A DNA stretch of 64,000 nucleotides, from the IMG/VR virus record IMGVR_UViG_3300027861_000018, positions 1 to 64,000 of that record; one strand, 5' to 3'. The stretch is from a virus. A program made the translations under genes and the position numbers. This document shows, one piece after another, positions 19,879 to 36,182 of this stretch. Numbering within the stretch: the first letter of the stretch is position 1; every line of letters begins with the position of its first letter. The notes under the pieces are model-generated. The model was not told the origin of the DNA and searched no databases. It saw only the letters and a program-made list of their open reading frames with translations.

Positions 19879-22800
19879 TCAGATGGTTGTGGAAGTTACC
19901 TCTATGACGCCATCATCGCCTAGCATGACAGTCTTCCTGTCCTTTTTGAGATCAACGCGGATTGTGCATCCAACCTTGAGCCTTGGCCCCCAATCAGCAT
20001 AGCTGTCAGGAAACACAACGACCTCCAAGCAGGAGTGGTCTGCTAACTCCAGCGTGATGAAGGCCATGTCTTGACCGGTCTTTTTGGTAATGATGTGCTT
20101 GTGACTAATCACCAAGCCGCAAGCAACAAAGGAGCGTCGGCGCTGCCAAGCCTTCCCCCTCGTCACATCCCCCTTCTTGGCGGCCCGAAATGCAGGGTGG
20201 CTGGGGGTCAAGCATTTCTCCCAACCGTCCCATGCCAATCCGTGGCGCCCCTTATTGCGCATGGTCTCCAGGTCCACCACATACAGAGCGCGGCATGCCT
20301 TTACCCCCCTCCACGTCAGCAATCGCATCGCCATGGAGGTGCCAATGCCTTGGTCTAGAATCCACCTGAACTCAGGGAAATTGTCCTGGTGGACCTTCAC
20401 GCGAACCTGATTGCCGTGGATGTCTTCGATGTTCACATTGGCATAGCGCTTGCCCCAACCCATCCTGGCCTTGGTGGCGGCATCAGGCTCCACCGTGTCA
20501 AAGTCACCCACCTGATTGTACTTGATGTCAATCATGGTGCCGGCGATGAGCGGCATGGACGGCCCTGCCCACACCTCCTCAATAGGCGTGAAGCGACACC
20601 CAGAGAGGGCGCTGGTCATGAGATTGGCATAGACGGCCATGGGATGCTTCCCGCCACCAAGGGGCGACACCTCGCCTGCTAGATACAGCAGGTCCTCTTC
20701 ATCATAGTCAGGCTCGCCATCCCAATCGGCAATCAACTCGCGCAGGGCGTCCTCCCATCCTGCTTTCTGCTTGCGGCCGATGTCCAACCAACTGCCCTTC
20801 TCCTTGATTGTCTCCAGCGCGATGCGCGTGTTGGGCAAGAGCTTCCGCATGGCGCCTGACTTGATCATCGCCCCCAAGGCGCGACTGTTGACGGCACGCC
20901 CGGCGATGCGCGCGAAGAAGTCTGGCATATCTGTGAACGGCTGGGCCTTCTGGATGGCTGTCGTAGCTGTCTCACCAACATACTTGATGTCAGTGAGATT
21001 GGAGACGATGTGGCCGTCGCCATTGATGGCGAAGCCGACACCGCTGACATTGATGTCTGGCGGCTGTACCTCGACGCCCAGGCGTTGAGCCTCTTTGGAA
21101 TAGCGGGCAATCTGCTCGCGTTTGGGCTCGTTCTGCATCAGCGCCCACATCAGCTCGGCCGGGTGGTGAACCTTCATCCACATCTGCCAATAACCAATGA
21201 TGGCATAGGCGGCTGAGTGACTCTTGTTGAATCCATAGGAGTTATGTGAGATAATGCCGGATTCACTCAAGATGTATGTGGCCGGTGCTGCGCCCATCTC
21301 AATGTCATAGGTAGCCTGGAATCCTATGTCTTCAATCGAGACAACGCGGCGGCAGTCAAGCGTTCTTCCGCGTGCTCCTCCCTGTGGCAGCGATGGCACA
21401 ATGCTTCCAGATTCTCCAAGGAGTGGTCCTGAATCCTGTTCTTGTGATGGACGTGCAGGCCCTTCAGGGCGGGGTGGGGGCTGCTCGCATCCGCCTGGGC
21501 GCCGCACCTCTCGCATACGTTGTTGGCGCGCGCCAACGCCGCTGCCCTCGCAGCCTTCCGCGCCATTGACCTTCCGTCGATGTATCCCGGATTCAATGCC
21601 CCGGTCATCTTCTTGGACTGCGCCGCGATGGATTTGTCCGTGCCCTTGGTCAAGCCAGCCTTCCAGCCCCTGCCCTTGCCGGCATGCGGACCGTAGGACC
21701 CCACTGGGCGCCCTTCCTCGCGACGCAACGCCCTGTACTGACGCTGGTAGCAACGATTGCACAACCCGCGGCAGAATGCCTGCCGCTCCTGGCACGTCGA
21801 ACACATCTGTTCTGTCGACATCCTCATGCCCCTCTGCTTCTGGCTCAATTACCATAGCTGTCGAAGAGCAAATCAGCGACCCTTCAACCAGCTCCCGCGC
21901 CTCCAGCCATCCTGTTGGCGTAGCCCAGTGATGGCCCAGTGAGCAGGCAAAGGAGGACCCGTCATCCAAGGTGATCTTGATGCACGTCTTGACGCCAGTG
22001 GGCTCCACCACCTTGATCGCATTCACCACCTCACCCTGCGGCGTCCATGACACCAGTTCTTGGCCATTGACCAGGGAATCGATGCGTTGAGAACCATGCC
22101 TGGTCTTGATTAACGTTTCCCCAGTTAGGCAGCCGAAAAAGGTGATGTCACTTATGATCTTCTCTGCCACATCGGCAGGCACGCCGCGCTCGACCGCACC
22201 GGCCACGAACTTTTCACGCTCACGCTTCAGAGTCTCATCGCCAATCTTTTTGGCGATGACCTTTCGCAAGGAGTCGGCCGTGCCTGGCGCGTATCCCGCC
22301 ATCTGTACAAATATCTTGGTGACCTGCTCTTGATACACCAGCACACCCAGTGAGTCAGAACAGATGGAATCATACAGGGGATGGACTTGCCTCTCATCAC
22401 GACGTTTGGGGTTCAGCTTCCTCTTTTTGAACTCCGTCGCCAGCCCCGACCGCGCTGGCCCTGGCCTGTTGAGAGCCACCATCGCCACATTGTCTTCGAA
22501 GCTATCAAAGGCGATGCCCTCACAAGCTGCATGTGCGCCAGTGGAATCATATTGGAAGATGCCAACATAATGGTGATCTGTGAATGCCTGAAGCGTCTCT
22601 GGGTTATCGAGCGGCAGCAGCTCATAGTCCAGCTTGAGCCCAGGATTGCGCTTCTCTGCCATCTTGCGCGCGTCATTGAGCACGGTCAGGGTTCGAAGGC
22701 CCAAGATGTCGAGCTTGAGCAAGCCCATGCCGCCAACGCCGTACATGTCCCACGCCGCCAACTTGACGATCAGGTTGTTGCGCATGTGCGTTTCGATTGG

Positions 22801-24567
22801 CACCACATCCGGGAGCGGGACAGGCGAGGTGATGACGCCGGCTGCATGCACGCCCGGCTGCCTGGCGTGGCCCTCCAGCTTCACCACCAGCGGCAAGACG
22901 TGCGGGTGGCGTGCATTGAAGTCGCGACACACTTTGAATTCCACAAAGCTGTCTGCCACAGTCTGGCTCGCACGCTCATCACCGCTGGACCGCTCAACAA
23001 TGGCGCCCGTCACATCATTGAGCTCTCCAAACGGCACACCAAGCACGCGCCCCACATCCTTCAGCGCGCTCTTGCCCTTCATGCGGCCCACTGTACAGAT
23101 GAGACTCACCTTGTCTCTGCCCCACTTCTCATGCAAGTAGGTGATGACCTCCTCACGCCGCACATCCTCAAAATCCATATCGATATCAGGCATATCGATA
23201 CGCTCAGGGCTGATGAAGCGTTCGAACAGCAAACCATGCTCAAGTGGATCCAGAGAGGTGATGCCTAGCAAGTAACACACCAGCGAGCCAGCTGCAGAAC
23301 CGCGCCCCGGGCCTGTCATGATTGGCGGCTCTGCCATATCACGGCACCAGTTGATGAGGTCGCGAACAATCAGAAAGTACCCAGGGAACTTTGCGCAGGC
23401 AATCGGCTCCTTTCCTGCCTTGCGCAGTTCCACGTCCAATTCCTTGTCCAATCGTGCCCTGTACTCTGCGACTGAATATCCTGTGACCTTGGAGCGCCCC
23501 TCGATGTCGCGCCAATCCCACCCTTCAGCGCAGAGACGGGACAGCTCTGCCACATCATCGCTGGAATCATGAGGCACTTGCGGCACCAATGCCTTGAAGC
23601 GGTCGATGTGCATCTTGTAGGTGTGTGCATCAGAGACCTCCACCGTGGCTTCAATGACCTCTGCGGCCAATTCCTCACCCATGTATGGGTGATTGGCCAA
23701 GAACGCTTCCATCATCTCAGCACCGCTGCGCAAGTGGTAGCCCTGCGGCGACCGCGGGTGATCAGGCTCCTCCATCGTCATCTTGTTCGCCAGGCACAGC
23801 AAGATGGTGTGGGCATCGGTGTCGTCAGCATTGATGTAGTGAACGTCATTGACAGCAATGAGAGGCAAGCCCAATGCCCTAGCGATGCGGATGAATGCCT
23901 TGTTGACTCTGCGGTGGAGCGGTCCGGCGTGCGGCATTAGCTCCAGATACATGCGGCCCTTGTAGGCGGCAGCCAGCTTCTTGGCGGTGCGGGCGGCTTG
24001 GGCCATCCGGCCCTGGATGACGTGATCGCCCAACAGGGAATCGGGGCCGCCAAAGCTGATGGACAGCCCCTCGTTGTGCTCGATGAGGAGCTCAACGTCA
24101 ACGCGGGGGATGCCTCGATAGCAACCTCCATCATTGTCCCAGGCGATGGACGTGAGGCGCGACAGCGACCTGAAGCCGTTGCCCTCCATCACCCTCGCCG
24201 TCACATCCCACGAGCGCATCACCTGCTTGCGTGCCTCCTCTGCTCGGATGACTTTTTGGCGCTCCCGGCCTTCCAGCCCAAGTGCAACGATATCCTCGTC
24301 ATCCTTGGTCAATCCGTGCTGACGATGGTTGGTCACGACATTGAGCACTGCGCCATAGATGGGGCGTGGCTGCTCCTCGCCGTCAGGCGTGTGCACATAG
24401 GCTGCCTTCTGAAGGTCGTATGCATATCTCAAGGTTGAGGTGTCGGTGACGCACAGCGTGCGCATCCCTAACTCTCTGCCTCGATTCACATGGGCCCCAA
24501 GCTGCCCAAATGCCTGCAGATAACTATACTCTGTGCGGCGGCGCAACTCTTCATATCGCAACGTCAT
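19879..24567 (-). CDS. dnaE: DNA polymerase III alpha subunit (family C), intein-containing
   Basis: GPGRGSAAGSLVCYLLGIT, FERFISPERIDMPDIDMDF, HAAGV, KLDILGL, YQEQV, YGFNKSHSAAY, PPDIN; ATGA-coupled start at 24567. Confidence 0.97.
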   Translation of the reverse strand: MTLRYEELRRRTEYSYLQAFGQLGAHVNRGRELGMRTLCVTDTSTLRYAYDLQKAAYVHTPDGEEQPRPIYGAVLNVVTNHRQHGLTKDDEDIVALGLEGRERQKVIRAEEARKQVMRSWDVTARVMEGNGFRSLSRLTSIAWDNDGGCYRGIPRVDVELLIEHNEGLSISFGGPDSLLGDHVIQGRMAQAARTAKKLAAAYKGRMYLELMPHAGPLHRRVNKAFIRIARALGLPLIAVNDVHYINADDTDAHTILLCLANKMTMEEPDHPRSPQGYHLRSGAEMMEAFLANHPYMGEELAAEVIEATVEVSDAHTYKMHIDRFKALVPQVPHDSSDDVAELSRLCAEGWDWRDIEGRSKVTGYSVAEYRARLDKELDVELRKAGKEPIACAKFPGYFLIVRDLINWCRDMAEPPIMTGPGRGSAAGSLVCYLLGITSLDPLEHGLLFERFISPERIDMPDIDMDFEDVRREEVITYLHEKWGRDKVSLICTVGRMKGKSALKDVGRVLGVPFGELNDVTGAIVERSSGDERASQTVADSFVEFKVCRDFNARHPHVLPLVVKLEGHARQPGVHAAGVITSPVPLPDVVPIETHMRNNLIVKLAAWDMYGVGGMGLLKLDILGLRTLTVLNDARKMAEKRNPGLKLDYELLPLDNPETLQAFTDHHYVGIFQYDSTGAHAACEGIAFDSFEDNVAMVALNRPGPARSGLATEFKKRKLNPKRRDERQVHPLYDSICSDSLGVLVYQEQVTKIFVQMAGYAPGTADSLRKVIAKKIGDETLKREREKFVAGAVERGVPADVAEKIISDITFFGCLTGETLIKTRHGSQRIDSLVNGQELVSWTPQGEVVNAIKVVEPTGVKTCIKITLDDGSSFACSLGHHWATPTGWLEARELVEGSLICSSTAMVIEPEAEGHEDVDRTDVFDVPGAAGILPRVVQSLLPASVQGVASRGRAPSGVLRSACRQGQGLEGWLDQGHGQIHRGAVQEDDRGIESGIHRRKVNGAEGCEGSGVGARQQRMREVRRPGGCEQPPPRPEGPARPSQEQDSGPLLGESGSIVPSLPQGGARGRTLDCRRVVSIEDIGFQATYDIEMGAAPATYILSESGIISHNSYGFNKSHSAAYAIIGYWQMWMKVHHPAELMWALMQNEPKREQIARYSKEAQRLGVEVQPPDINVSGVGFAINGDGHIVSNLTDIKYVGETATTAIQKAQPFTDMPDFFARIAGRAVNSRALGAMIKSGAMRKLLPNTRIALETIKEKGSWLDIGRKQKAGWEDALRELIADWDGEPDYDEEDLLYLAGEVSPLGGGKHPMAVYANLMTSALSGCRFTPIEEVWAGPSMPLIAGTMIDIKYNQVGDFDTVEPDAATKARMGWGKRYANVNIEDIHGNQVRVKVHQDNFPEFRWILDQGIGTSMAMRLLTWRGVKACRALYVVDLETMRNKGRHGLAWDGWEKCLTPSHPAFRAAKKGDVTRGKAWQRRRSFVACGLVISHKHIITKKTGQDMAFITLELADHSCLEVVVFPDSYADWGPRLKVGCTIRVDLKKDRKTVMLGDDGVIEVTSTTI
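21241..22131 (-). mobile_element. intein (297 aa) in DnaE
   Basis: FFG|CLTGETLI (block A), CSLGHHW (block B), TYDIEM (block F), ISHN|S (block G plus Ser+1); removing it restores FFG-SYGFNKSH. Confidence 0.93.
21324..21821 (-). CDS. HNH homing endonuclease encoded out of frame inside the intein
   Basis: Frame shifted by 1 nt from dnaE; CSTC..CRGLCNRCY, NUMOD3-like WKAGLTK...GALNPGYIDG, CERC...LHVHHKNRIQDHSLENLEALCHRCHREEH; GAGGGG 7 nt before ATG 21821. Confidence 0.85.
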   Translation of the reverse strand: MSTEQMCSTCQERQAFCRGLCNRCYQRQYRALRREEGRPVGSYGPHAGKGRGWKAGLTKGTDKSIAAQSKKMTGALNPGYIDGRSMARKAARAAALARANNVCERCGAQADASSPHPALKGLHVHHKNRIQDHSLENLEALCHRCHREEHAEERLTAAALSRLKT

Positions 24568-25166
24568 GCTTGCTCTCCTGCAAGGCCAAGCCAATCGACA
24601 ACTGCCGCTTCGACGGCCGACCCTATGTGCTTCTCACCATCCCAGTAAGGAACCTGGCTCACGTCCAATCGCAAGGTAGGCAGAGCTGATGCTAGGCGCA
24701 CTGCGGTGTTGAGCCTGGACCGTACCCCAGACAATCGCTCCGGATGCCGTCTGGTGTCATCTGGCGGCAGGCGTGCCATCAAATTCTCAACCGGGGCATC
24801 CAGGTGAACGATGCGGGCGTCAAGCGGGCGCAGAGTTGACGCCCACCACCTCACCAGCGCAGCGTGGGCCAGCGGCCCTTCAGGAGCATAGGCCACGCCT
24901 GATGGCATCGACCTGTCCAGGAACAACCTGGACGACCAGGCCAAGCCAGCGTTGTGATGAAGGCACGCCAGCACATCGGCCGCATACACGTCATCCACAT
25001 AGGTGTTCACAGGCACGCCGCGCTCTCGCCACTCTGCCAGTTGATCCTGCGACAAGCGCCCATCCCTCCACGCCATCGCGCGATATGGCAGGAAGTCATA
25101 GCGCGCGAGTGACTCAGACAGGGTCGTCTTGCCGACACCTTCTGGGCCTTCCAGAACGAGAATCAC
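24564..25166 (-). CDS. dNMP (thymidylate-kinase-like) kinase
   Basis: ILVLEGPEGVGKTT, LFLDRSMPSGVAY, IVHLDAP. Confidence 0.85.
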   Translation of the reverse strand: MILVLEGPEGVGKTTLSESLARYDFLPYRAMAWRDGRLSQDQLAEWRERGVPVNTYVDDVYAADVLACLHHNAGLAWSSRLFLDRSMPSGVAYAPEGPLAHAALVRWWASTLRPLDARIVHLDAPVENLMARLPPDDTRRHPERLSGVRSRLNTAVRLASALPTLRLDVSQVPYWDGEKHIGSAVEAAVVDWLGLAGEQA

Positions 25167-26473
25167 GCGAGTGCTTTCATGAGGGCGGCGTGGGCCGCAT
25201 CCATCATTCTGAAAGCAATGGCCAGATCACGGGCGCTGATGTTCATTGGCGGATTGAACCTGATGGCGCCAGCATCGCGCCACGTCATGAGGAGCAGGCC
25301 GGCAGCGTGACAAGCGTCACAGAATTGACGCCCATTGTATGGCAAATCATCCCATTCCAGGTCAAATGCCTTCATCAAGCCATAGCCGTGCACCTTCTTG
25401 ACGTATGGGCGCTCATTCAGAGCCTTCTCGATGAGGTCGCCCTTGACGATGACCTCGCCCAGGTGGTCATCCAGCCACCCGATGAAACGAGTGGAATGAT
25501 GGCACACCCACTCAGACCCTGCCATACTGTTGAAATGGGTGCCCGGGGTCATCGCCTTGGCAATGGAAGCGTTGGCGATGACTGCGCTCATAGGGAAGCC
25601 CATGGCCAAACCCTTGCCAAGGCAGAGAATGTCAGGGCGCAAGTCAATCTCAGGGTGCTGCCAGCTGCTGTAATGGCCGCAGCGACCCGCGCCAGCCTGA
25701 ACATCGTCAAAGATGATCAAGATGCCCTTCGTGTCCGCAAACTCTCGCAACCTCTGGAAGAACACCTTGGGATAGGTTGTGATGCAATTGTTGCCAAGAA
25801 CTGGCGCCATGTTGATGGCGCCCACCTGATCCCAACGCAGGTCAGGATCATCGCCCGGCGGCAAACCTCCGGTGGGCCCCTCCTTCAGGAGGGAGAACCA
25901 CCAGTTGTCACCATTGTCGAAATACTCGACAGTCCCAAACAACGGGGGCATCGGGCCATACCCCTCCTTGTGATATGGGCTATCGGTTGAATCAGAGCAC
26001 GCCATGGCGAAGGCTGTACGCCCATGGAAGTTGCCCTTGAGAGTGACGACGCCCAGCTTGGGGTTGCCGTCACGGTCTTTGTGCGTGCCATGCTTGGTCT
26101 GCCACAATCGGGCTAGCTTGATGGCTGTCTCATTTGCCTCGGCGCCGCTGTTGGCATAGAACACCTTGCCGCAGTCGCCTTCATCTGTATAGCCTGTGCG
26201 ATTGACCAACAGAGCCGCATTGTACTCGCGGTGCGGGCCGTGATAGGCGCGAGGCAGGCGGTGGGGTGCGTTGGTTGTGAGTAGCTCCATGGCTGTCTTC
26301 TGAAGAATTGGCGTGTTGTAGCCCATTGAGGCCACGCCTTCATCGTTCCAACAGTCAAGGAGTTTGAGCCCTGTGTCAGTGATCAGCCACGACCCCTTGC
26401 CTTTGACAAAGCACAACGGTACGCGGTGGGTGATGTCAAACAGGTATTGGGCTGGCTTGATGGTGTCGTCCAA
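25163..26473 (-). CDS. PLP-dependent class III aminotransferase (ArgD/ornithine AT-like, divergent)
   Basis: NSGAEANETAIKLAR, FHGRT, LIIFDDVQAGAGRCG, PDILCLGKGL (PLP Lys), IRFNPP. Confidence 0.93.
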   Translation of the reverse strand: MDDTIKPAQYLFDITHRVPLCFVKGKGSWLITDTGLKLLDCWNDEGVASMGYNTPILQKTAMELLTTNAPHRLPRAYHGPHREYNAALLVNRTGYTDEGDCGKVFYANSGAEANETAIKLARLWQTKHGTHKDRDGNPKLGVVTLKGNFHGRTAFAMACSDSTDSPYHKEGYGPMPPLFGTVEYFDNGDNWWFSLLKEGPTGGLPPGDDPDLRWDQVGAINMAPVLGNNCITTYPKVFFQRLREFADTKGILIIFDDVQAGAGRCGHYSSWQHPEIDLRPDILCLGKGLAMGFPMSAVIANASIAKAMTPGTHFNSMAGSEWVCHHSTRFIGWLDDHLGEVIVKGDLIEKALNERPYVKKVHGYGLMKAFDLEWDDLPYNGRQFCDACHAAGLLLMTWRDAGAIRFNPPMNISARDLAIAFRMMDAAHAALMKALA

Positions 26474-26482
26474 GATGTCCTC

Positions 26483-27562
26483 TCAGGATGTGCGAAGGGC
26501 GTGGGCTGCGACGGTTGCCGCGTGTTGCGGGTCCTCCCCTGACTCCAAGGGGCGGCCTGTATACGGGTCACGACCCCAGAAAATGGCGCGGCGCATTGCC
26601 TCCTCTTCGATGTCAAACATAAGCCTGATTGTGCCATTCTTGTAGGCAGCTCGGGCCTGGTCTGCCAGGGGTGAGGATTCTCGGCCGAGGAATAGCGGAC
26701 AGACCGGCAGATTGTGGTCGCGGCCATCAAACCTGCGCTGGATGTCCTCTGGGAAAATGCACCCCGTGTACTTGGTTCCCTTCATGCACGGCGGGGTGAC
26801 GAGGCGGCCAAAGCACGGGTGGATGTGGGTTGTGAGTTGGCTGATGATCCCGTTGATGATCGGGCCCCAATACCCAAGCTGGAGGATGGTGCAGCCTCGC
26901 TTCCCAACGATGTGCTGGAGTGTTCGCAGATTGAGGGTCCAACTGAGACGTGAGGTGGCGCCCAGTGGGATGAGGTCACGGGCATCCTCCAGCGGGAGGC
27001 CGCTGGAAGCCCAGCGAGCATACATTGCCTCGATGGTCTCCATGTCCTTGCGCCACCTCAGCACCGCGTCTGGCCCCATCGCAATCACAGTATCTGGGGT
27101 GCGGAAGGCACTGCGCTCGCTGGCGAACGTTGACATGTCGAGAAGTCGCATGGATTGGCTCCACGCGCTCATGTCTGCCACTTCAGGGATGGTGTCGACT
27201 GTGATCCAGTCAGCACCAACGCGCACATCAGGCTTGGTCCCGACGCGATGGCGCACCATCTGCTCCCGCCAGCCGATGCTGGCATTCTCAATGATGAAGT
27301 TGAAACTAACTGCCTCGACAACAGGAACGCCCTCCATCACGCTGGTCATCAAATCTGCCAGCTCAACGTCACTCATGATCAGCACTTGGCCGACGATGTC
27401 ATCCAACTCTTCAGTCGTCTTTGACTGAAGCCAGATGATAGCGATGACCTGCATCACGCCCAGACGTGGATCGGAATTGATGCGGCGCTGAAGGTGGAAG
27501 GGCATGCCGCTGACGCCAACCAGTGTGACCTTGGGCGGGTCGGTTGGCTTGACGAGGTCCAT
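26483..27562 (-). CDS. thyX: ThyX-family flavin-dependent enzyme, divergent
   Basis: QMVRHR...SQSMR and EDARDLIPLG...LNLRTL..IVGKR; GGAG SD before ATG 27562 (GTG 27598 also possible). Confidence 0.8.
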   Translation of the reverse strand: MDLVKPTDPPKVTLVGVSGMPFHLQRRINSDPRLGVMQVIAIIWLQSKTTEELDDIVGQVLIMSDVELADLMTSVMEGVPVVEAVSFNFIIENASIGWREQMVRHRVGTKPDVRVGADWITVDTIPEVADMSAWSQSMRLLDMSTFASERSAFRTPDTVIAMGPDAVLRWRKDMETIEAMYARWASSGLPLEDARDLIPLGATSRLSWTLNLRTLQHIVGKRGCTILQLGYWGPIINGIISQLTTHIHPCFGRLVTPPCMKGTKYTGCIFPEDIQRRFDGRDHNLPVCPLFLGRESSPLADQARAAYKNGTIRLMFDIEEEAMRRAIFWGRDPYTGRPLESGEDPQHAATVAAHALRTS

Positions 27563-27612
27563 CAAGGTCTCCAGAGAAACGGGGTTAGTCTCGACCACTC
27601 TACAGCGGCGCG

Positions 27613-28566
27613 CTACCTATCAGACAGGAATAGTGGCTTGTTGACATTGATTGTTGCGTCCGGGTTCCTGCCCCAGTTGGTCTGAACCATGGCGTGGCGC
27701 ACCTGTTTCCACGACCACACGCGCACAATGTCGCTGTGGACCGGCAAAGACTGATTCCACGGCTGATCCATCAGCAAGACCGGCTTGACGTGGTGGGTGA
27801 CCAACTCCAAGCAGTGCTTGTCACGGTCCTCCACGAATGCGACCACCTGTGCCGGCATGATGCTCTGGTGCACAGCATCCCACTTGTCCTTGTTGAAGAG
27901 CAGGATGTCGCACGGCACGCCGTTGTCTTGTAGCCATTGCACGGTATCGGGCCGCACCCGGGCATGCTCCCATACAGGCCGAGCGGTGACGATGGCCACC
28001 AAGCACCCTGCCTCCTGGGCTTGGATGAGCGCCTCTTTGGCCCCCGGCACGAGATCCAAGGTTTGGAACCCGCCATCAGCATACCACTGCGCCTTCTTCT
28101 CTTCAGTGGAGAGAGTGCCGACCGTTGGGTTGCCGTACTGGCCGCCGGTGGCCTCAAAAAATTTGGACAAGTCGGCGACGCAGCTGTCGAGGTCTGTGAC
28201 AAACACTCGCCTACCCGCCAACTCCACGCGGTATTGATGGAACTTCTGCTCCACATCCAAGGTCTTGGCGGCAAATCGTTTGCTGATTTGCTTTGGAGTC
28301 ATGCCGGCAAGGTGAGCGATTGCCATCGCATACTTGAGCACATCAACCATTTCTTCCACGGCATTGCCGCCGTGCCCTCTCTCTTGCCTCACGACGTGAG
28401 GCTTGCGCCGTAGGCTGCGCGCAAGCTCGGTCGCCTCTTCATGCAGGCCCAGCAGCAACTCATCCATGTATGCAGAGCGTTCTGCGTCGGTCATGAGGTC
28501 ACGGTCATACCACAGCGTCTGCTGTGCAGCCTGTGCCACAAAAAGGTCTTCAATGGTCGTTGTCAT
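27613..28566 (-). CDS. all-alpha dUTPase/MazG-type NTP pyrophosphatase fused to a HAD (5'-nucleotidase-like) phosphatase
   Basis: N-terminal LHEEATEL...KPH...EEMVDVLKY; C-terminal DLDSCVAD, IVTARP, FVEDR. Confidence 0.82.
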   Translation of the reverse strand: MTTTIEDLFVAQAAQQTLWYDRDLMTDAERSAYMDELLLGLHEEATELARSLRRKPHVVRQERGHGGNAVEEMVDVLKYAMAIAHLAGMTPKQISKRFAAKTLDVEQKFHQYRVELAGRRVFVTDLDSCVADLSKFFEATGGQYGNPTVGTLSTEEKKAQWYADGGFQTLDLVPGAKEALIQAQEAGCLVAIVTARPVWEHARVRPDTVQWLQDNGVPCDILLFNKDKWDAVHQSIMPAQVVAFVEDRDKHCLELVTHHVKPVLLMDQPWNQSLPVHSDIVRVWSWKQVRHAMVQTNWGRNPDATINVNKPLFLSDR

Positions 28567-28841
28567 TCCGCCTCCTCTTCAGGCTCGTCTACATCCGAGT
28601 TGTCACACATGTACTTCACGCCTGTCCCGACAAGGGGGTGCACAGCGCAAGGCACCAAGGTCCCGGGTGCGCACTTTGCGACCAGCGTGTGGGCGCGGTC
28701 CGGCTTGATGCTGATTGCGGCCATGCAGTCTACCTCAATCACCCTTGTCGGCTTGGCATCAAATGCCAGAAACGTATCTGTCAAGATGCCGAGGGCAGCG
28801 GCAATACCGATAGCGACAACAGCCCAGCGCACTCTAGTCAT
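28563..28841 (-). CDS. small membrane-anchored Cys-containing protein
   Basis: N-terminal hydrophobic helix; ATGA-coupled on both sides. Confidence 0.6.
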   Translation of the reverse strand: MTRVRWAVVAIGIAAALGILTDTFLAFDAKPTRVIEVDCMAAISIKPDRAHTLVAKCAPGTLVPCAVHPLVGTGVKYMCDNSDVDEPEEEAE

Positions 28842-29806
28842 GCGGTCAACTCCTCGTGGCAAGCGTCGACCACCTGATCCACTGTGATGCGTGAATTCCA
28901 TTGCGCAAAACGCCCTGCCAATCGAATATTTGACCCAGAGCCAGCGCGCCAAGTGCGCCAAGTCACAGGGTGAAGGTGCCCCGGCAGCTGGCGCGGTGGC
29001 GCGAGCAACGTACTGCCCAGACGGGCTAAGTCGACGGCCAAGGAGTGCGTGCTGCGATCATTCCACTCAAGCTCCAATGCGATGTTGCCATCATCATCAA
29101 CAACAGGGCGAACCCTGTGAATTGCCTCCAGCCATGGCGTGTACGTGTAATCGTAATGCCCCAGATGCGCCGTTCTGCCGGTGAGCGAGATTCTGGCGAC
29201 CTTGAGCCACTCATGGGGGCACACGGGCGCTTCCCTGCCCTCCAGCTGAAGCAACTTGGCCAAAATGGGGAGTGGCACCGTGCTCGTGATGCGGCCGCTG
29301 GCGCTCTCGATCCATCGACGTGGACCAACACATGCCATAGGACCTGATATGACTGTCGCGTGCGCCTGTATGATGTCGCAGTGTCGCTCCACCAAGCCAA
29401 ACAGACGGCTGAAGTCTGTCAAGACTCGCTCGCCCCCAGTGCCGCCAAAATTCATGACGCCCGGCCCATATCCTTCATAGGTCCCGCGAGTCTTGCCATA
29501 ATGCAAGCGCTGGACCGCCTCCAGGTGACCGCCCAAGCCTTGAGGATAGGGCAGCACCCGGCCTTTATGTGTGAGCACCCCTCCGCTCATTGCCTTCAGC
29601 GTGAAGTCCATCTTGTGCGCGTGCAGCAGAGCCCTCACCCCGACGCTATTGCGAAGGTATTGGAAACCGCCCTTGGCATAGCTACCACCCAGATGGCTGG
29701 GCTCAATGACAGCAACTGTCTCGCCCTTCCTCCATGCGGCAAGGGATAAAGCGATGAGGCAGCCAGACATGCCGCCGCCCAAGATCACGTGGTCATAGTG
29801 CGCCAT
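28838..29806 (-). CDS. FAD/NAD(P)-binding oxidoreductase
   Basis: Rossmann VILGGGMSG...VIE...GG, STVPL, C-terminal LAGRFAQW. Confidence 0.85.
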   Translation of the reverse strand: MAHYDHVILGGGMSGCLIALSLAAWRKGETVAVIEPSHLGGSYAKGGFQYLRNSVGVRALLHAHKMDFTLKAMSGGVLTHKGRVLPYPQGLGGHLEAVQRLHYGKTRGTYEGYGPGVMNFGGTGGERVLTDFSRLFGLVERHCDIIQAHATVISGPMACVGPRRWIESASGRITSTVPLPILAKLLQLEGREAPVCPHEWLKVARISLTGRTAHLGHYDYTYTPWLEAIHRVRPVVDDDGNIALELEWNDRSTHSLAVDLARLGSTLLAPPRQLPGHLHPVTWRTWRAGSGSNIRLAGRFAQWNSRITVDQVVDACHEELTA

Positions 29807-30852
29807 TAGGCAATACTCTCTGTTATGCGCGGCCAGTCACCGCTCTTGATGATCCGTGCCAATACTCGCGCGACTTGGCTCACGTGACGCTCCTCGACCC
29901 CCTCAATGACGGTTGGTCGTCGGGCATCCTTCCACCGCTTGACGCGCAACGTCTTGGGCAAAACAGCCCTGGCCATCTCCACCATTGCATCAGGCGCTAC
30001 CAATTGAATCTTGATCATGGGCTGACGCTTGGATGGATACAGATACATCACGGCCAATGGAGTCGCCTTGGCGTTGTTCTTGCGGACGTACATCACATAG
30101 TGATCGCTTCTGCGAAGCCTGTCCCGGTAGAACATGCCCCCAGCGTGACACCGGTGTCGATACTCTCCAGCAAATTCAACAGGGATTGCTCTGGCAAAGG
30201 CCGCCATCATCTTCTTGGCGATGGCTCGTGACTCAGCATACACATACGGGTCGTGAGGGAACCCGATGCGCGGGCGGGGTGAGCCAGGCTTGCTTGATGC
30301 GGTGACCTCTTGCTTGCTCTGCGCATCAGGCGTGGGCTGGGTGGGCCGAAGCACAACTGACCGATACTGAGTGGCAGAAGGCGGTCCTTCAGCATCATCA
30401 TCGGCCGCCATGAACCATATCGTCCGCTCTGGAGTCGTGTTGACCGCGGCTGACCTGATTTGAATCTTGCGACACATATTGCGCCAGACACAGGGCGGCT
30501 CGGCCCCGGGGCCGATCAGGCCGTCGCAAGTTGGGTCGCCGGGCTCATGGTGGCCGACACACCCAGGGTTGTTGAATCTGTGCCTGGCTGCTGCCGCCCA
30601 GTGGGGCAACCCCTCCGGAATGGACCCGTGCTCCACCCACGTCACAGTTGCCGTCTGCTTGTTCACAGCAACGCATACGCGCCCCCACTCATACGTCTCG
30701 ACGAGCAGACTCCATCCCTTGTCCCTCAGGCGCACAGGGCGATGCTGCTTGGTTGGCCTGGGGTCCAGCCCGAAGGCTGCGATGTAGTCATGGACCATCT
30801 TGGCATCCATGCGGGCGCCAATGGCGACACGGTATAGCGTTTCAGACTTCAT
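29806..30852 (-). CDS. hypothetical protein with a 4-Cys module
   Basis: TAATG coupling; PGCVGHHEPGDPTC...CVWRNMC. Confidence 0.7.
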   Translation of the reverse strand: MKSETLYRVAIGARMDAKMVHDYIAAFGLDPRPTKQHRPVRLRDKGWSLLVETYEWGRVCVAVNKQTATVTWVEHGSIPEGLPHWAAAARHRFNNPGCVGHHEPGDPTCDGLIGPGAEPPCVWRNMCRKIQIRSAAVNTTPERTIWFMAADDDAEGPPSATQYRSVVLRPTQPTPDAQSKQEVTASSKPGSPRPRIGFPHDPYVYAESRAIAKKMMAAFARAIPVEFAGEYRHRCHAGGMFYRDRLRRSDHYVMYVRKNNAKATPLAVMYLYPSKRQPMIKIQLVAPDAMVEMARAVLPKTLRVKRWKDARRPTVIEGVEERHVSQVARVLARIIKSGDWPRITESIA

Positions 30853-31543: not shown

Positions 31544-33559
31544 TTATGCGTGTCGGTGGAGGTTGAACCAGTGGGGCGCGACCTCTAATATCATGTCAGC
31601 CAATTGGCCTAAGTTGTTGCAGGTGCGGTGATTGGGGTAGTAGTGGCGCACGGAATCATCCATGATTCCGAACCCCCAAACCTCAATGCCAGCTGATATC
31701 GCTGCGGCAATGCACGCCTTGAGCTCGCGGCGCATTTTCGCCGAGTTGCCTGGCGCTGCGGGTTGGCCGTCAGACAAGACCATCAAGATGCGGCGCTTGG
31801 CTCTGCGGCACCGCAGCTCTTGGAGAGCCCACTTGACCGAGTCTGGGTCAGCATTCTCCCACAGCCTAACCTCTGCTGCCACGCGGCTGCGAACCTGCGA
31901 CCAGTTCTCATCCCAATCGCACCAGTTGTAGTGCTCAATGGGCGACAGACGACCGTAATGATGCGTGTGCGTGTAACTTCCGGTGATGGAGTTGCCTGCC
32001 GTGAAACCTGTGGCACTAAGCTGAATGCTGTTAGGCGTTGTCCTGTTGATGGAATCCAGCAAGTCACCCAGAAGCAGGATGCCCTGCTGCATCAGGGCGA
32101 ATTTGGAACCTGCCATGGAGCCAGAGCAGTCGCCCAACAGCTTGATAGCCACATCATGCGTCTCGCCCGGCACCAGGCGTGTCCTGATGTTATCGACTGG
32201 GCGCCCTGCTTCGCGGATGTTTGCGCGCCACATGGCGCGGCGGTCAAGTCGCCCGTGGCGCTGAGCATATACCTTTGTGGACTGAGACCGCGTAGCCAGC
32301 AAGGTGCGCATCCTAGCAGACAGCGTGGCCGACTCCTTGCTAACCCCCTTCGCGATGCGCTCTGCCGCAGATAGGGTGGCCGCTGTGACGGCTGGCGTCG
32401 CAATCATATCCTTCTTGGCTGCGCCGGGGTGCACCGTGTAGTCGGTCATCCCATCCGCCTTGGCCGTGTTGGTGGGCGCAGCGCCAGCTTGCCTGATTAT
32501 GGCTTCATCAATCGCTTCATGAATAGGCGACTCAGTGTCAGTGAGCGTGAGAGACCCGGCCTTGAGCGCCCTAAGTGCCTTCAAGACCTCCTCTGCTGAC
32601 ACTGGCGCCATGTCTGGGCTCTCGGCGCTCTTGTCGCGCTTGGCGCCTCCACCCCCTTCATCCCCTTCATCCCCTTCACCCTCTTCACCCTCTTCACCCT
32701 CTTCAGCAGGGGCCTCGCTGTCACCGCCTGGCGACATCATACCTTTCAACTCTTCATCAGGGATGGAAGTGCCGGCGCTGTAAAGCGCGTCAGCATAGCA
32801 CAGCGCCAGATTCCAAGCATCCCAAACGCTCCCAAGGGTCTCTGGACTGAGCAAGGCATGGAAGCCGTCAAGAGCCTTCAACACGGTCAGGGACTCTTGG
32901 CACAAGAAGCTGTAATCATAACCCCAGGCGTGGAAGATGATCCCGCACCCAACCTGATACGTTGGGTCAACTGATCTGGGATTAGCTGCCAGCTTCTTGC
33001 CCCAACTCCGATGGGCGTGATCACGCCCGGCCTTGAGGTGCTGCGCCACGCCTCGATAACGCTCACCAGCCCGCCGCTCAATTCGCACATCCTCCACCAC
33101 ATTGAACATCATAGCAACAAGATTGGCGCCAAGTAGTCCGGCGACGACATTCAGAAGGCCGACAGGGGTGGTGCGATAGGTGCATCGGGTCCCTGGCGGC
33201 AGGGCGAGTAATTTGATGTGGTCTGTGACTATGAGGCACGTCCTCTCCCAGATGGCGGCATTGATGGCAACTGACGCCCTGTCGGCCGCGGCGTGCTCTG
33301 CCTCCACCTGCACTTTGACGTGCTCTGATTCATGATTGACCTTGGCCCACACCAAGTCCATATCTTCATCAGCCAGCTCTGCGACGTTTGTCGGCAGAGT
33401 GACCGTCCCTAGCATGTCAGTCTTGCACTGACCTGACTGGAAGATGACTCGCAGGTCGTGGCGGTCACTGAACGTTTGGGCGATACGCTCAAGGCGCCCC
33501 CCTATGAGGGGCAATCGCGTCTCAATGGACTTGGCATTCTTGATAGCAGCTTTTGCCAC
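31544..33559 (-). CDS. CobT-like vWA protein with N-terminal HExxH
   Basis: HESEH...NVVEDVRIE, acidic linker, GRLDRR, MIDAS DCSGSM and LSDGQP. Confidence 0.88.
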   Translation of the reverse strand: MAKAAIKNAKSIETRLPLIGGRLERIAQTFSDRHDLRVIFQSGQCKTDMLGTVTLPTNVAELADEDMDLVWAKVNHESEHVKVQVEAEHAAADRASVAINAAIWERTCLIVTDHIKLLALPPGTRCTYRTTPVGLLNVVAGLLGANLVAMMFNVVEDVRIERRAGERYRGVAQHLKAGRDHAHRSWGKKLAANPRSVDPTYQVGCGIIFHAWGYDYSFLCQESLTVLKALDGFHALLSPETLGSVWDAWNLALCYADALYSAGTSIPDEELKGMMSPGGDSEAPAEEGEEGEEGEGDEGDEGGGGAKRDKSAESPDMAPVSAEEVLKALRALKAGSLTLTDTESPIHEAIDEAIIRQAGAAPTNTAKADGMTDYTVHPGAAKKDMIATPAVTAATLSAAERIAKGVSKESATLSARMRTLLATRSQSTKVYAQRHGRLDRRAMWRANIREAGRPVDNIRTRLVPGETHDVAIKLLGDCSGSMAGSKFALMQQGILLLGDLLDSINRTTPNSIQLSATGFTAGNSITGSYTHTHHYGRLSPIEHYNWCDWDENWSQVRSRVAAEVRLWENADPDSVKWALQELRCRRAKRRILMVLSDGQPAAPGNSAKMRRELKACIAAAISAGIEVWGFGIMDDSVRHYYPNHRTCNNLGQLADMILEVAPHWFNLHRHA

Positions 33560-33602
33560 GGCGCACTCCTGGTTGCGGGCATAGGGGGCGACCCGCTCAG
33601 CT

Positions 33603-33641
33603 ACCTTAGCTGAAGCGCCGCCACAAGGCTAATTAATTTTA
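33603..33641 (-). promoter_or_regulatory. class A promoter (A/T tract, TAGCCT-17-TAAGGT)
   Basis: -10 at 33603-33608, -35 at 33626-33631. Confidence 0.55.
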
Positions 33642-33685
33642 TGGCATTCGCCGATAACGCTGGCTGATGCCAAGCGCGACCAAGC

Positions 33686-35044
33686 TCAACGGCCGACCAC
33701 CTGACGGATGATGTCACCCACCGTCTTGTGATCTGGGTCTGCCGGATCAATGCCATTGGTGACACTAAGCCGAGCTGCCAGATGAATGTTCTTTGTGGCG
33801 TGCGCGAGACGCGCCCACACCAGCGACTTCCGCGGGCTGATTGAAGCTCGACAACGCGCCTTGGCCTTGGCTTCATTGACCTTGATCGCTGTCTGAACAA
33901 TCATCTTGGCGTCGGAAAGTGCGATGGATGTCTTTCCAACCAGCATCTTGACCCACACCTTGTCAGCTGGGTACGCGTGGCGCATCTTGATGCCCCATCG
34001 ATCCAGCGCTGCTGCATTGAGGACGAATGTGCCAGCATAGTCGCCAGTCATATCACCTTGCCCAGACGTGTTGGCGCTTGCCATGATGCGGAAAGCAGGG
34101 TGTGCGTCGACCACTTCGCCGCTAGCGAGGAGCAATTGACAGTGAGGTTTGCCGTCAGCAATGGCCTTCAATGGGTCGTGGTGGCGCTCAGTCAACCTCT
34201 GCAAGACCGTGTGCACCTGGGGCGGCGCAGCGTCAATCTCATCAATCAGAAGCAGATGGCCGCGGCGCATGGCGGTTACCACAGGGCCATCTTCCCATGC
34301 TGTGACGACACTCCCCTCATCGGTCTCGACCATGACCACGTCACCAACAAGATCAGATGGGCGCATATCCCCATAGAAATTGACCCTGGTCACGGGTTGA
34401 TTCGACAGGGCGCTGATGATGTTGACCAGCGAAGTCTTGCCGCTTCCGGTGGGCCCAATGATGAGCACATTTTCAACCATGGCGATGCCCAGGGCAATCT
34501 GCGCCAGAGCTGCCTCGACGCTCCCGCTGATCTCATATCGGTCGTCGTAAGGTGCGACCATGGATGCATCCGCAGCACCCCACCCATCCCAGATACCAAG
34601 GCGTGCCTTGGCCGAACCGCACGGAAGCTCCATCCATTTCGTGACTCGCGGACCAATGTGCCCGAGCGGCGCCGGCGCTGCCGCAAGCGAACTGCTCAGC
34701 GAAACCCCCTCTTCAGATGCGGGTGCGGGCGCTGGGGTGGGTGCTGGCTCTGGTGCAGGAGGACGGGCAGCACCCTTGGCTCCGGCTCTGATGCGGGCCG
34801 CATTGTACGCGCTCTGCGTCGGCGCTCCCGGATACTTGAGCCGATATGCCTCCACGCGGTCAAGTCCAGGTTTCAACATCTCTGGATGAGCCTTTCCCAG
34901 ATGGACGGGCAGAGCGTGAAGCCTGCGCCCGCACTCGCAGCAAATGATTTTGTCGGCGCGACTTGTCTCATCACGTCCCATGGTGGTCGCCATGATCACC
35001 CTGTCTCGCAGCGACAGGTCTGCGATATCGATACGCTTGCTCAT
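33686..35044 (-). CDS. MoxR/CobS-like AAA+ ATPase with N-terminal MucR-like Zn finger
   Basis: GPTGSGKTS, DLVG, WEDGP, LLIDEID, FRIMASANT, LDRW, SPR; ICCECG...LPVHL...H...AYRLKYP; GGAG SD. Confidence 0.9.
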   Translation of the reverse strand: MSKRIDIADLSLRDRVIMATTMGRDETSRADKIICCECGRRLHALPVHLGKAHPEMLKPGLDRVEAYRLKYPGAPTQSAYNAARIRAGAKGAARPPAPEPAPTPAPAPASEEGVSLSSSLAAAPAPLGHIGPRVTKWMELPCGSAKARLGIWDGWGAADASMVAPYDDRYEISGSVEAALAQIALGIAMVENVLIIGPTGSGKTSLVNIISALSNQPVTRVNFYGDMRPSDLVGDVVMVETDEGSVVTAWEDGPVVTAMRRGHLLLIDEIDAAPPQVHTVLQRLTERHHDPLKAIADGKPHCQLLLASGEVVDAHPAFRIMASANTSGQGDMTGDYAGTFVLNAAALDRWGIKMRHAYPADKVWVKMLVGKTSIALSDAKMIVQTAIKVNEAKAKARCRASISPRKSLVWARLAHATKNIHLAARLSVTNGIDPADPDHKTVGDIIRQVVGR

Positions 35045-35068
35045 CCGTGTACTCCAGTGTGCCGTGGC

Positions 35069-35097
35069 GCCGGGGTTGCCGGGGTTGCCGGGGTTGC
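35069..35097. repeat. 9-bp tandem repeat (GCCGGGGTT x3)
   Basis: Directly visible in the leader of the AAA+ gene. Confidence 0.9.
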
Positions 35098-35112
35098 GCG
35101 TTGACTGACGGA

Positions 35113-35153
35113 ACCTTAACTGAGCAAGGCACCTTGCGGCTACAACTTTTTTT
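35113..35153 (-). promoter_or_regulatory. class A promoter (A-tract, TAGCCG-18-TAAGGT)
   Basis: -10 at 35113-35118, -35 at 35137-35142; inverted repeat GCAAGG-N2-CCTTGC in the spacer. Confidence 0.55.
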
Positions 35154-35174
35154 GCCTTAAAGCAATATCTGTGC

Positions 35175-36182
35175 TCAATCCCAAGGATTGTGAAAGAGCT
35201 TTGCTGCGGCAGCAAGTCCATCAAGCGGAGTGGCAACGAGCGCGGCCTCAATAATGTGACGGCGGGCAGCCTTTTTGTTGGCCACAGTATCGGGGTCAAT
35301 GCCGCGAGGCAACTTGACCACCTTCATTGAGCGGAATCGATGAGCAATGTGAGAGCATTTGACCACCACGTCTTGGTATGCCTCGCCATCAGGCACCACA
35401 ATTAGCTCTGGCGGGTCCAGCTCAGCCAATAATTCCACTTGTGGGTCCCGCAAGTGGCTGCCGAAATAAGGGCACGACTGGAAGCCCCAGCCATCCCATC
35501 GTATGGCGTCAAAAATGCCCTCCATCACGTATACGGGGGCACCTGGGTCCAATCTGTCAAAGCCGCCCAAGAAATTGGCTTGGAGGGTCCCTGGGTTGAG
35601 ATACTTGAATTTGGACCTGCCGGACATGTCCCGAGCAACAAAGCTCGTCATGCCGCCGCACACAACAGGAATGACCACGCGCTCGCGATACTTGCCACTC
35701 ATGCAGTAGCCCATCCCCCAACGTCTAGCAGCTGATTGATTGATGCCCCTGTTCTTCAAGTATGGCGGGATGCGATAGGTGTTGCGACCCCTGTCCCAGC
35801 AAGGCCTGAAGCCCGGCGGCATCGGCACCGAGAGATCAACGGCAGCGGCGGCGCTAAGCGTCCCATCCTTCAAAGACTGGAACATCTGGGCCAGCTCTGA
35901 CATTGGTCGAGCTTTGATGATGCCGCGAGCGAAGCGCCCAACGACCTCCACCGCTTGGGCGTATCCGCAACCCTCAATCTGCATCACCAGGGCGGCAATG
36001 TTGCCTCGTGCTTTGCAGTGCCCGGAATAGCAGTTGAACTTCAACTTGCGAATATTCACATACATCTTGTCGGACCGACCGCAGAAGAGGCAACTGCGCA
36101 AGACCAATTCATCCCCATCCCGGTGCTTTTGACGGCGCAGGACAGAGAGATTCCTGAGCAGATAGTCTTCTGCCGCACTCAC
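35175..36182 (-). CDS. DNA primase (Zn finger plus TOPRIM)
   Basis: CLFC...FNCYSGHC, YLKNRGI, RVVIPV, KYLNP, VMEGIFDA, DPD. Confidence 0.9.
   Translation of the reverse strand: MSAAEDYLLRNLSVLRRQKHRDGDELVLRSCLFCGRSDKMYVNIRKLKFNCYSGHCKARGNIAALVMQIEGCGYAQAVEVVGRFARGIIKARPMSELAQMFQSLKDGTLSAAAAVDLSVPMPPGFRPCWDRGRNTYRIPPYLKNRGINQSAARRWGMGYCMSGKYRERVVIPVVCGGMTSFVARDMSGRSKFKYLNPGTLQANFLGGFDRLDPGAPVYVMEGIFDAIRWDGWGFQSCPYFGSHLRDPQVELLAELDPPELIVVPDGEAYQDVVVKCSHIAHRFRSMKVVKLPRGIDPDTVANKKAARRHIIEAALVATPLDGLAAAAKLFHNPWD

Follow-up and report, generated by a model that had tools for sequence, protein, structure and literature searches.

A conserved, polymerase-linked phage operon encoding a ThyX-like protein and a class III aminotransferase, a candidate route to an amine-bearing deoxynucleotide

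Layout of the operon

The DNA analysed here, referred to as the window, is the first 64 kb (64,000 nucleotides) of the IMG/VR virus record IMGVR_UViG_3300027861_000018 (86,268 bp, estimated to be 84% complete). Next to its gene for a DnaE-type DNA polymerase lies an operon encoding a flavoprotein (FADox), a MazG-like/HAD fusion, a divergent ThyX-like protein (ThyXL), a class III pyridoxal phosphate (PLP) aminotransferase (AT3) and a P-loop nucleotide kinase, which together may tailor the nucleotide pool of the phage before replication. The single sequencing run listed as containing the window DNA is a seawater metagenome, which may be its source; no RNA run is listed. A first-pass annotation of the letters alone had described a co-oriented block at 24564-29806 plus dnaE, with mostly overlapping stop and start codons. 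The block was indeed found on the minus strand throughout, at these coordinates. In order of transcription, the genes are as follows.

29806-30852, minus strand: 348-aa protein with a Cys/His-rich stretch; 1-base overlap with the FADox start
28838-29806, minus strand: FADox, 322 aa, a phage-only family of the amine-oxidase/UDP-galactopyranose-mutase/renalase superfamily
28563-28841, minus strand: 92-aa open reading frame (ORF), best start ATG 28841; a single hydrophobic helix plus an acidic tail; joined by ATGA overlaps to the genes on either side
27613-28566, minus strand: fusion of a predicted MazG-like all-alpha NTP pyrophosphohydrolase (N-terminal ~110 aa) and a predicted HAD 5'(3')-deoxyribonucleotidase (C-terminal ~200 aa)
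26483-27598, minus strand: ThyXL, divergent Cys-rich ThyX-like protein; 371 aa from GTG 27598, 359 aa from ATG 27562
25163-26473, minus strand: AT3, class III (fold type I) PLP aminotransferase of a phage-specific subfamily
24564-25166, minus strand: P-loop nucleotide kinase of the thymidylate-kinase/deoxynucleoside-kinase superfamily
19879-24594, minus strand: DnaE-type DNA polymerase III alpha with an intein-like insert; likely start ATG 24567, in ATGA overlap with the kinase stop

The junctions, in the same order, are TAATG, ATGA, ATGA, a 50-nt gap (from ATG 27562), a 9-nt gap, GTGA and ATGA. Stop and start thus overlap at 5/7 junctions, and because of these sequences the claim of mostly overlapping codons was right. 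The 9-nt gap between ThyXL and AT3 carries a Shine-Dalgarno-like GAGAGGA. The 9-mer CTGTAGAGT occupies window positions 27597-27605 (minus strand), just 5' of the ThyXL start and between the fusion and ThyXL, in the sole sizeable gap within the operon.

The 92-aa ORF had been counted as a block member under the name of a small membrane protein, and this did not hold up. It had no tblastn match in 44 related loci, including L002 and L003, which are 60-76% identical, and therefore lies outside the conserved set; a longer 132-aa reading of it had no Pfam, PHROG or NCBIfam match. We treat it as a probable accessory particular to this phage.

Family assignment of the encoded enzymes

ThyXL passed the Pfam Thy1 model (1.2e-16, 61.5 bits against a cut-off of 24.8) and failed the NCBIfam equivalog TIGR02170 (47.5 bits against a cut-off of 87.9), whilst the best Foldseek matches to its structural model were all ThyX (E 8e-6, TMt 0.63-0.68). 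It keeps Q113, R116, H117, R118, S149, R151, R207 and R234, equivalent to T. maritima Q75, R78, H79, R80, S88, R90, R147 and R174 (R147/R174 mapped by HMMER alignment to the T. maritima chain; S88/R90 by alignment A10 and inspection). The RHR motif (R116-H117-R118), S149, R151, R207 and R234 were invariant among 24 sequences, as were four cysteines (C236, C271, C280 and C300), and a ~25-residue insert after RHR was disordered in the model. The position of the ThyX residue Tyr91, after R151, was occupied by Leu or Ile in 24/24 sequences, and that of His53, mapped by inspection only, was variable (R/H/G/K), five residues before the invariant E95. The available text of one study describes Tyr91 as strictly conserved in ThyX and critical for the methylation half-reaction, and His53 as conserved; mutation of Tyr91 made flavin oxidation 1000-fold slower in the methylation reaction (PMC11940539). 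The initial designation of a divergent ThyX held up. At least 252 ThyXL homologues were found in metagenomes, many on contigs of 85-116 kb.

ThyA (PF00303) had no match in the 86-kb record (controls matched in 10/14 genomes) and neither a second ThyX/Thy1 nor a dUTPase was found in the genome, which makes ThyXL its only thymidylate synthase candidate. This fact, together with the retention of all ThyX nucleotide-binding residues, favours an explanation in which the operon serves ordinary thymidylate supply. ThyXL would then be a divergent thymidylate synthase and the flavoprotein its accessory, for example a redox partner for a Cys-bound metal site; the fusion and kinase would balance the pool, the aminotransferase would have a separate job and virion DNA would be canonical. 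The loss of Y91 and H53 speaks against it, and we judge it somewhat unlikely.

The fusion fits this explanation poorly, since an enzyme joining a dNTP pyrophosphatase to a 5'-deoxynucleotidase would be wasteful if the phage merely needed more dTMP. Its Pfam NT5C match fell just short of the threshold (6e-5, 23.4 bits against a cut-off of 24.8). Compared with the PDB, a profile built from 22 orthologues (A3) matched human and mouse cytosolic and mitochondrial 5'(3')-deoxyribonucleotidases through its C-terminal half (1.4e-6 to 7e-5) and MazG-like 2q73 (9e-5), YpjD (7e-4) and 5ie9 (3e-3) through its N-terminal half (positions 39-123); the MazG-like part had no Pfam match. D125 and D127 of the DxD nucleophile motif and K228 were invariant; at positions corresponding to the EExxE...D metal motif of the four-helix MazG-like domain, D75 was invariant and E43/E44 nearly so. 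The fusion is thus a candidate dNTP/dNMP-destroying enzyme.

The kinase matched AAA_28 (2e-6) and phrog_761 'thymidylate kinase' (9e-7), whilst its Pfam Thymidylate_kin match spanned the P-loop only. Its profile (A9) was closest in the PDB to the uncharacterised YorR of SPbeta (4.8e-12), followed by Tmk (1.8e-10) and deoxynucleoside kinases (3e-6); G7, G12, K13, D84 and R85 were invariant.

AT3 was far above the cut-off of the Pfam family Aminotran_3 (1.7e-55, 188.8 bits against 30.5), with the PLP lysine K287 and the pyridine-binding D256 invariant in 21 sequences and aligned with the motifs of 2eh6, its best PDB match (1.1e-39); its earlier identification as a class III PLP aminotransferase was confirmed. 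R152 was also invariant, and R82 and D44 were family-specific. The closest relatives of AT3 are acetylornithine, ornithine and putrescine aminotransferases (<31% identity), and it failed the ArgD equivalog/subfamily cut-offs (best 193 bits against 372, and 184 against 457); the 25 NCBIfam families listed of the 69 matched were all far under their cut-offs.

As the nearest solved relatives of AT3 act on ornithine-type, putrescine and diaminobutyrate-type substrates, it could instead make a ligand, either a diamine or an amino acid, for later attachment to hydroxymethyl-uracil in DNA. A precedent exists in Acinetobacter phage SH-Ab 15599, whose diaminopropane-thymine (dapT) pathway, in the available part of its description, takes its donor from a class III enzyme, the host diaminobutyrate aminotransferase Dat (PMC13458397). 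Such a supply of amine donor would call for partners that the record seems to lack. The first-pass annotation had reported neither a ThyA-type hydroxymethylase nor a post-replicative transferase; the former absence stands, and the latter extends to the 48 of ~91 ORFs of the genome covered by the Pfam scan, where no transferase was recognisable (~40 smaller ORFs lay outside the scan, no dedicated 5-HMUDK or aGPT-Pplase model was run and the record is 84% complete). We regard the donor explanation as very improbable.

FADox matched Pfam only through its N-terminal Rossmann part (DAO, 4e-5, under the cut-off), and the Amino_oxidase domain itself was unmatched. Its AlphaFold model, built on 21 orthologues, had a predicted local distance difference test (pLDDT) score of 86 and gave 786 Foldseek matches at E<=0.001, the best to 6-hydroxynicotine oxidase (1.3e-12) and others to putrescine oxidase, UDP-galactopyranose mutase (UGM; TMq 0.64) and renalase. 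It has the two-domain GR2-type flavin adenine dinucleotide (FAD) fold with an N-terminal GxGxxG, in which G10, G12 and G15 are invariant; further invariants across the 21-sequence alignment A2, besides GxGxxG, were KTR, MN, Y.P and GR..W..R.T. Its nearest clusters in the Atlas were viral only and its nearest named relatives were protoporphyrinogen/amine-oxidase families; three of 16 flavoprotein clusters, those listed, have 53-110 members each. The earlier label of FAD oxidoreductase was therefore correct as regards the flavoprotein fold, but the type is that of amine oxidases and UGM, unlike a typical alcohol oxidase.

DnaE matched DNA_pol3_alpha (2e-73) and the finger, PHP and HHH_6 domains in Pfam. 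An intein-like insert lies at window positions 21200-22150 (minus strand), beginning with Cys and ending in His-Asn followed by Ser, as read from the translation. A 174-aa ORF at 21324-21848, on the same strand in another frame, falls inside the insert region.

Conservation and distribution of the gene set

Forty-three viral loci were found through ThyXL, among them duplicates of one phage (L008/9, L010/22, L018/19, L029-32 and L033/34). All five enzymes (FADox, fusion, ThyXL, AT3 and kinase) occurred together at E<=1e-3, adjoining DnaE, in 28 of the 43, an arrangement we term class 1. The other 15 comprised one locus cut by the contig end, one with ThyXL and kinase only (upstream part cut), L037 with ThyXL, AT3 and a weak kinase, and 12 with ThyXL without the others. 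Eighty metagenome loci, in which DnaE was not scored, showed the same split between set-bearing and set-less loci.

Reverse searches gave the same picture. When 80 loci were scored with the AT3-family hidden Markov model (HMM), all 30 at or above 342 bits carried ThyXL and none of the 50 others did, and 24/26 loci found through FADox carried the set. A lack of co-occurrence in other phages was one of the refuting outcomes named beforehand; as the genes do co-occur there (28/43 viral loci), the proposal is not refuted on this count. Identities across loci fell to 25-45% and gene order was partly permuted, AT3 preceding ThyXL in six loci; the set stays together despite this and therefore holds through rearrangement. 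The block is more than a chance neighbourhood, and its genes very probably form a real, co-functioning operon.

These results bear on ordinary thymidylate supply in both directions. In none of the 80 loci did the AT3 subfamily occur apart from the set, AT3 and the kinase are coupled in translation, and the six permuted loci kept the set intact, all of which is hard to square with an aminotransferase doing a separate job. On the other hand, class 1 loci are syntenic across the entire replication module, and some of the joint occurrence may therefore be gene order inherited from a common ancestor.

A prophage or cellular origin was rejected, as a search of 185,579 species genomes gave no relative of ThyXL. 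Megablast found no near-identical block in cultured phages, and tblastn of ThyXL, the aminotransferase and DnaE against cultured phages returned distant matches only; the 'phage' matches to the aminotransferase were mostly unannotated or bacterial-looking records. The operon being conserved, confined to phages and polymerase-linked is therefore supported.

Alternative genomic contexts of ThyXL and AT3

The 12 viral loci with ThyXL alone constitute class 2, with a backbone of PD-(D/E)XK nuclease, AAA_24, HD YfbR-like 5'-deoxynucleotidase, ThyXL, PolA and primase-helicase, and without AT3, FADox or a clear kinase. A radical S-adenosylmethionine (SAM)/SPASM protein was present in the block in 7/12 and may mark a different tailoring chemistry. 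One example (L038:7856-12716) has, immediately before PolA, an HD YfbR-like 5'-deoxynucleotidase, a 180-aa protein, a radical SAM/SPASM protein and ThyXL. In a quick IQ-TREE analysis of 86 distinct ThyXL (identical sequences collapsed; gp59 of Pbunavirus LMA2 left out, HMM coverage <250 positions), class 2 was a single clade among class 1 lines (Shimodaira-Hasegawa approximate likelihood-ratio test, SH-aLRT, 98), which points to one transfer between backbones. A ThyXL adjoining PolA with only a 5'-deoxynucleotidase for company is what plain thymidylate supply would lead one to expect. That ThyXL-only loci are independent of nucleotide destruction was rejected, as 9/12 have the HD YfbR-like enzyme upstream; in two of the other three ThyXL lies at the locus start, and L040 differs. 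A predicted nucleotide-destroying enzyme thus accompanies ThyXL in both classes, of the HAD type in class 1 and of the non-homologous HD YfbR-like type in class 2.

Class 3 comprises two contigs only (L179:5674-13504 and L170:4714-11472), whose phages would have genomes of about 50 kb, judging by one 30.7-kb contig of 61% completeness. The order is primase-MCM, a 255-259-aa FADox-like protein, fusion, a short-chain dehydrogenase/reductase (SDR), AT3, kinase and DnaE. The FADox-like protein matched only the first ~50 FADox residues (probability 93.5% and 52%). The SDR is of the classical type with an intact YxxxK and takes the slot of ThyXL; it immediately precedes AT3 in one of the contigs, whereas in the other a further gene lies between them. 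In L170 a GNAT/FemAB-like protein adjoins the aminotransferase (an Atlas lead only). One contig reaches far enough to show a 224-aa Cys-type ThyX after DnaE; this ThyX has three Cys in common with ThyXL and the Pbunavirus ThyX, and Phe at the Tyr91 position. A class 3 without any ThyX was accordingly rejected, the other contig being a 31%-complete fragment. No aminotransferase set was seen without a Cys-type ThyX nearby, whereas ThyXL was seen without the aminotransferase set.

Class 3 raises the prospect that the amine is placed on the sugar. The oxidoreductase would make a keto or aldehyde sugar at the 3' or 5' position of deoxyribose, AT3 would aminate it, and fusion and kinase would trim or restore phosphates; the outcome would be an unusual building block or a compound that inhibits host synthesis, with ThyX a mere neighbour. 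The invariant partners of AT3 in classes 1 and 3 are the fusion and the kinase, a classical SDR with YxxxK lies directly or one gene further upstream of AT3 in class 3, the fusion would release the nucleoside without its phosphates and deoxynucleoside kinases are among the relatives of the kinase (3e-6). The gene logic resembles that of puromycin biosynthesis (Pur10/Pur4/Pur7/Pur3) and of uridine-5'-aldehyde transamination in nucleoside antibiotics. Against this, sugar amination has no known phage precedent, 3'-amino nucleotides are chain terminators from which the phage's own DnaE would suffer as well, the kinase profile is closer to thymidylate kinases (1.8e-10), a Cys-type ThyX lies near the aminotransferase in every class seen and class 3 amounts to two contigs. 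We therefore consider it improbable. A nucleotide-sugar pathway (UGM-like flavoprotein, SDR, aminotransferase and acyltransferase) was set aside, since neither a nucleotidyltransferase nor a glycosyltransferase was seen, the SDR is classical and AT3 is class III rather than DegT.

Comparison with known systems

The design principle of this operon is shared with the cluster for deoxy-2-aminoadenosine (dZ), PurZ/MazZ/DatZ/DpoZ, which combines a synthase homologue, a MazG-type pyrophosphatase, a canonical-dNTP hydrolase and a linked polymerase. The dZ cluster concerns a purine, however, and its enzymes are unrelated to those here except for the MazG-type fold. Closer in substrate are phages such as SPO1, in which thymidine is replaced pre-replicatively by 5-hydroxymethyl-dU. 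Phages of the SPO1/SP8/phi-e type share the logic of a thymidylate-synthase homologue acting on dUMP, destruction of dTTP/dUTP, kinases and a polymerase of their own. The pre-replicative half of the PhiW-14 and SH-Ab 15599 pathways follows it too (PMC13458397). Known thymidine replacement of this kind uses ThyA-family hydroxymethylases, with no aminotransferase or flavoprotein, and any amine is added after replication by a kinase and a transferase (Pplase2); here the synthase homologue belongs to the ThyX family and there is no ThyA. The candidate product could be the same base as the 5-aminomethyl-deoxyuridine (5-NmdU) of Pseudomonas phage PaMx11, which also involves a flavin enzyme. That route (gp46, then gp47) acts on DNA, post-replicatively, from 5-phosphomethyl-dU via glycinyl-thymidine, and neither a ThyX nor a transaminase figures in the available part of its description (PMC11472151).

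Pbunaviruses offer a cultured parallel to the pairing of flavoprotein and ThyX. LMA2 (L048; 6638-7639 and 8848-9765) encodes in one region a FADox homologue, gp65, annotated as hypothetical (hhalign probability 95.8%, E 6.9e-9, 256 columns), a Cys-type ThyX without Y91, gp59, and a DnaE, gp55. Its gp57 has just the DxD in common with the fusion (probability 21%), its ThyX lacks the RHR histidine and the insert, and its genome has no class III aminotransferase. We know of no report of odd bases in Pbunavirus DNA, and a literature search for modified bases there found nothing. A FADox homologue with a Cys-type ThyX and DnaE but without an aminotransferase speaks for a two-part thymidylate synthase, the form of the thymidylate-supply explanation that we take as the main rival, with sugar amination and amine-donor supply as lesser ones.

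The closest cultured relative of ThyXL was gene 124 of Listeria phage LIS04, filed as species Thornevirus SP15; the ThyXL HMM gave it 126 bits, and it was 26% identical to a class 2 member (E 3e-23). It lacks the RHR His, the insert and all four Cys, and the LIS04 genome has no class III aminotransferase. We infer that gene 124 is SP-15 gp130. In the available text of Kropinski et al. (PMC5977210), SP-15 makes dihydroxypentyluracil, a 5-substituted uracil, before DNA synthesis, and the proposed hydroxymethyluridylate synthase of this phage is a divergent Thy1 protein 'without homologs'. No description of the present gene set was found in the literature (supplementary files, possibly with SP-15 gp130 gene tables, were outside the search). 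The present analysis adds the contexts of classes 2 and 3, the co-occurrence tests run in reverse, the relative of SP-15 type and a test of the link to Pbunaviruses.

A candidate pathway and its alternatives

Taken together, we place the probability that the operon is a pre-replicative, pool-level tailoring pathway towards an amine-bearing deoxynucleotide at about 0.35. All of its chemical steps are read from the genes, their families, their coupling and their co-conservation. The Cys-rich ThyXL would add a carbon unit to C5 of dUMP via a flavin N5 adduct, without the final reduction; since it lacks Tyr91 and His53, it may halt before the reductive step and leave a C5 substituent. This substituent would be brought to the carbonyl (aldehyde) level and AT3 would convert the carbonyl to a primary amine, 5-aminomethyl-dUMP being the simplest product. 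The Tmk-like kinase would then phosphorylate the new dNMP and the phage DnaE would incorporate it, whilst the MazG/5'-deoxynucleotidase fusion could clear the competing canonical nucleotide (dTTP to dTMP to dT).

The steps differ in credibility. That the aminotransferase aminates a nucleotide-derived carbonyl has not quite an even chance in our view, whereas a carbon supplied at C5 by the ThyX-like enzyme seems doubtful. The constant presence of a dNMP-destroying companion would fit a non-canonical nucleotide, as would the GNAT/FemAB-like class 3 neighbour, which might be expected because an amine product could be acylated. In its boldest form, the proposal is that thymidine gives way, in the nucleotide pool of a widespread clade of uncultured phages, to a 5-substituted deoxyuridine that bears an amine. 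This route, which would be without a described counterpart, would run through a non-reducing C5 alkylase/hydroxymethylase of the ThyX family, a class III transaminase acting on a nucleotide aldehyde, the kinase and DnaE, with sister modules (radical SAM in class 2; SDR and GNAT in class 3) making other bases. This version we think distinctly unlikely.

Several observations weigh against the aminated nucleotide, above all against the 5-aminomethyl route. The FADox fold is that of amine oxidases and UGM, and FADox occurs with a Cys-type ThyX in Pbunaviruses that have no aminotransferase, so FADox may be a helper of ThyX and not the "oxidation step" of the proposed route, an assignment that is thereby weakened. 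Those same phages combine a flavoprotein with Y91 loss, and neither feature therefore has to indicate a modified base. ThyXL occurs without aminotransferase, flavoprotein and kinase in 12/43 viral loci and 23/86 distinct ThyXL sequences. In class 3 an SDR takes the ThyXL slot and a short ThyX follows DnaE, hence the substrate of the aminotransferase may not come from ThyX. No cultured phage was found that carries the set. Overall, the pool-level aminated-nucleotide pathway proposed by the first-pass annotation is upheld as plausible by the conserved polymerase-linked operon with its destroying fusion, kinase and divergent ThyX, whereas its suggested product, 5-aminomethyl-dUMP, is one option only, and neither this identity nor entry of the product into DNA is supported.

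The summed observed/expected ratio (O/E) of T-containing 4-bp palindromes was 0.76 here, lower than in SPO1 (0.93) and PhiW-14 (0.88), which carry modified T. This stronger avoidance is weak evidence against a strongly protective T replacement, and avoidance of T-containing palindromes is in keeping with canonical DNA. The 6-bp values were non-discriminating (0.78 against 0.79 and 0.81 in SPO1 and PhiW-14), and 6-mer site avoidance was rejected as a test for modified T as both phages were at the same level.

Amongst individual sites in the whole 86-kb genome, AAGCTT occurred 2 times (24 expected) and CTCGAG 0 times (12.7 expected), and O/E was 0.54 for GATC, 0.58 for CATG and 0.52 for TGCA. 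TGCA and CGCG were at 0.00-0.13 in some related loci.

If a new pre-replicative base is made, a route based on ThyX and a transaminase would be added to the known phage DNA disguises, a function would be assigned to a large metagenomic family (no fewer than 252 ThyX-like proteins, along with several clusters of flavoproteins) and enzymes for amine-functionalised DNA would become available. It would also be the first test of the old SP-15 proposal of a ThyX homologue as hydroxymethylase. Even if the DNA is canonical, a Cys-type ThyX paired with a flavoprotein would be an undescribed form of thymidylate synthesis, one that could be studied in cultured Pbunaviruses.

Surrounding genes

The block is embedded in a replication module. 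Upstream are genes for a helicase, a DnaC-like protein, DnaB, primase, a CobS/CobT-like pair and a sigma factor, and downstream are RecA, SbcD/SbcC-like proteins and a 5'-3' exonuclease. No tRNA genes were found in the window. The 348-aa protein at the head of the operon had no family match in Pfam, PHROG or NCBIfam and was kept in 9/44 compared loci only. The pair identified by PHROG matches, a CobT-like (671 aa) and a CobS/AAA-like (537 aa) protein, lies at window positions 31544-35299, upstream of the sigma factor gene, and is kept alongside the module in most class 1 loci.

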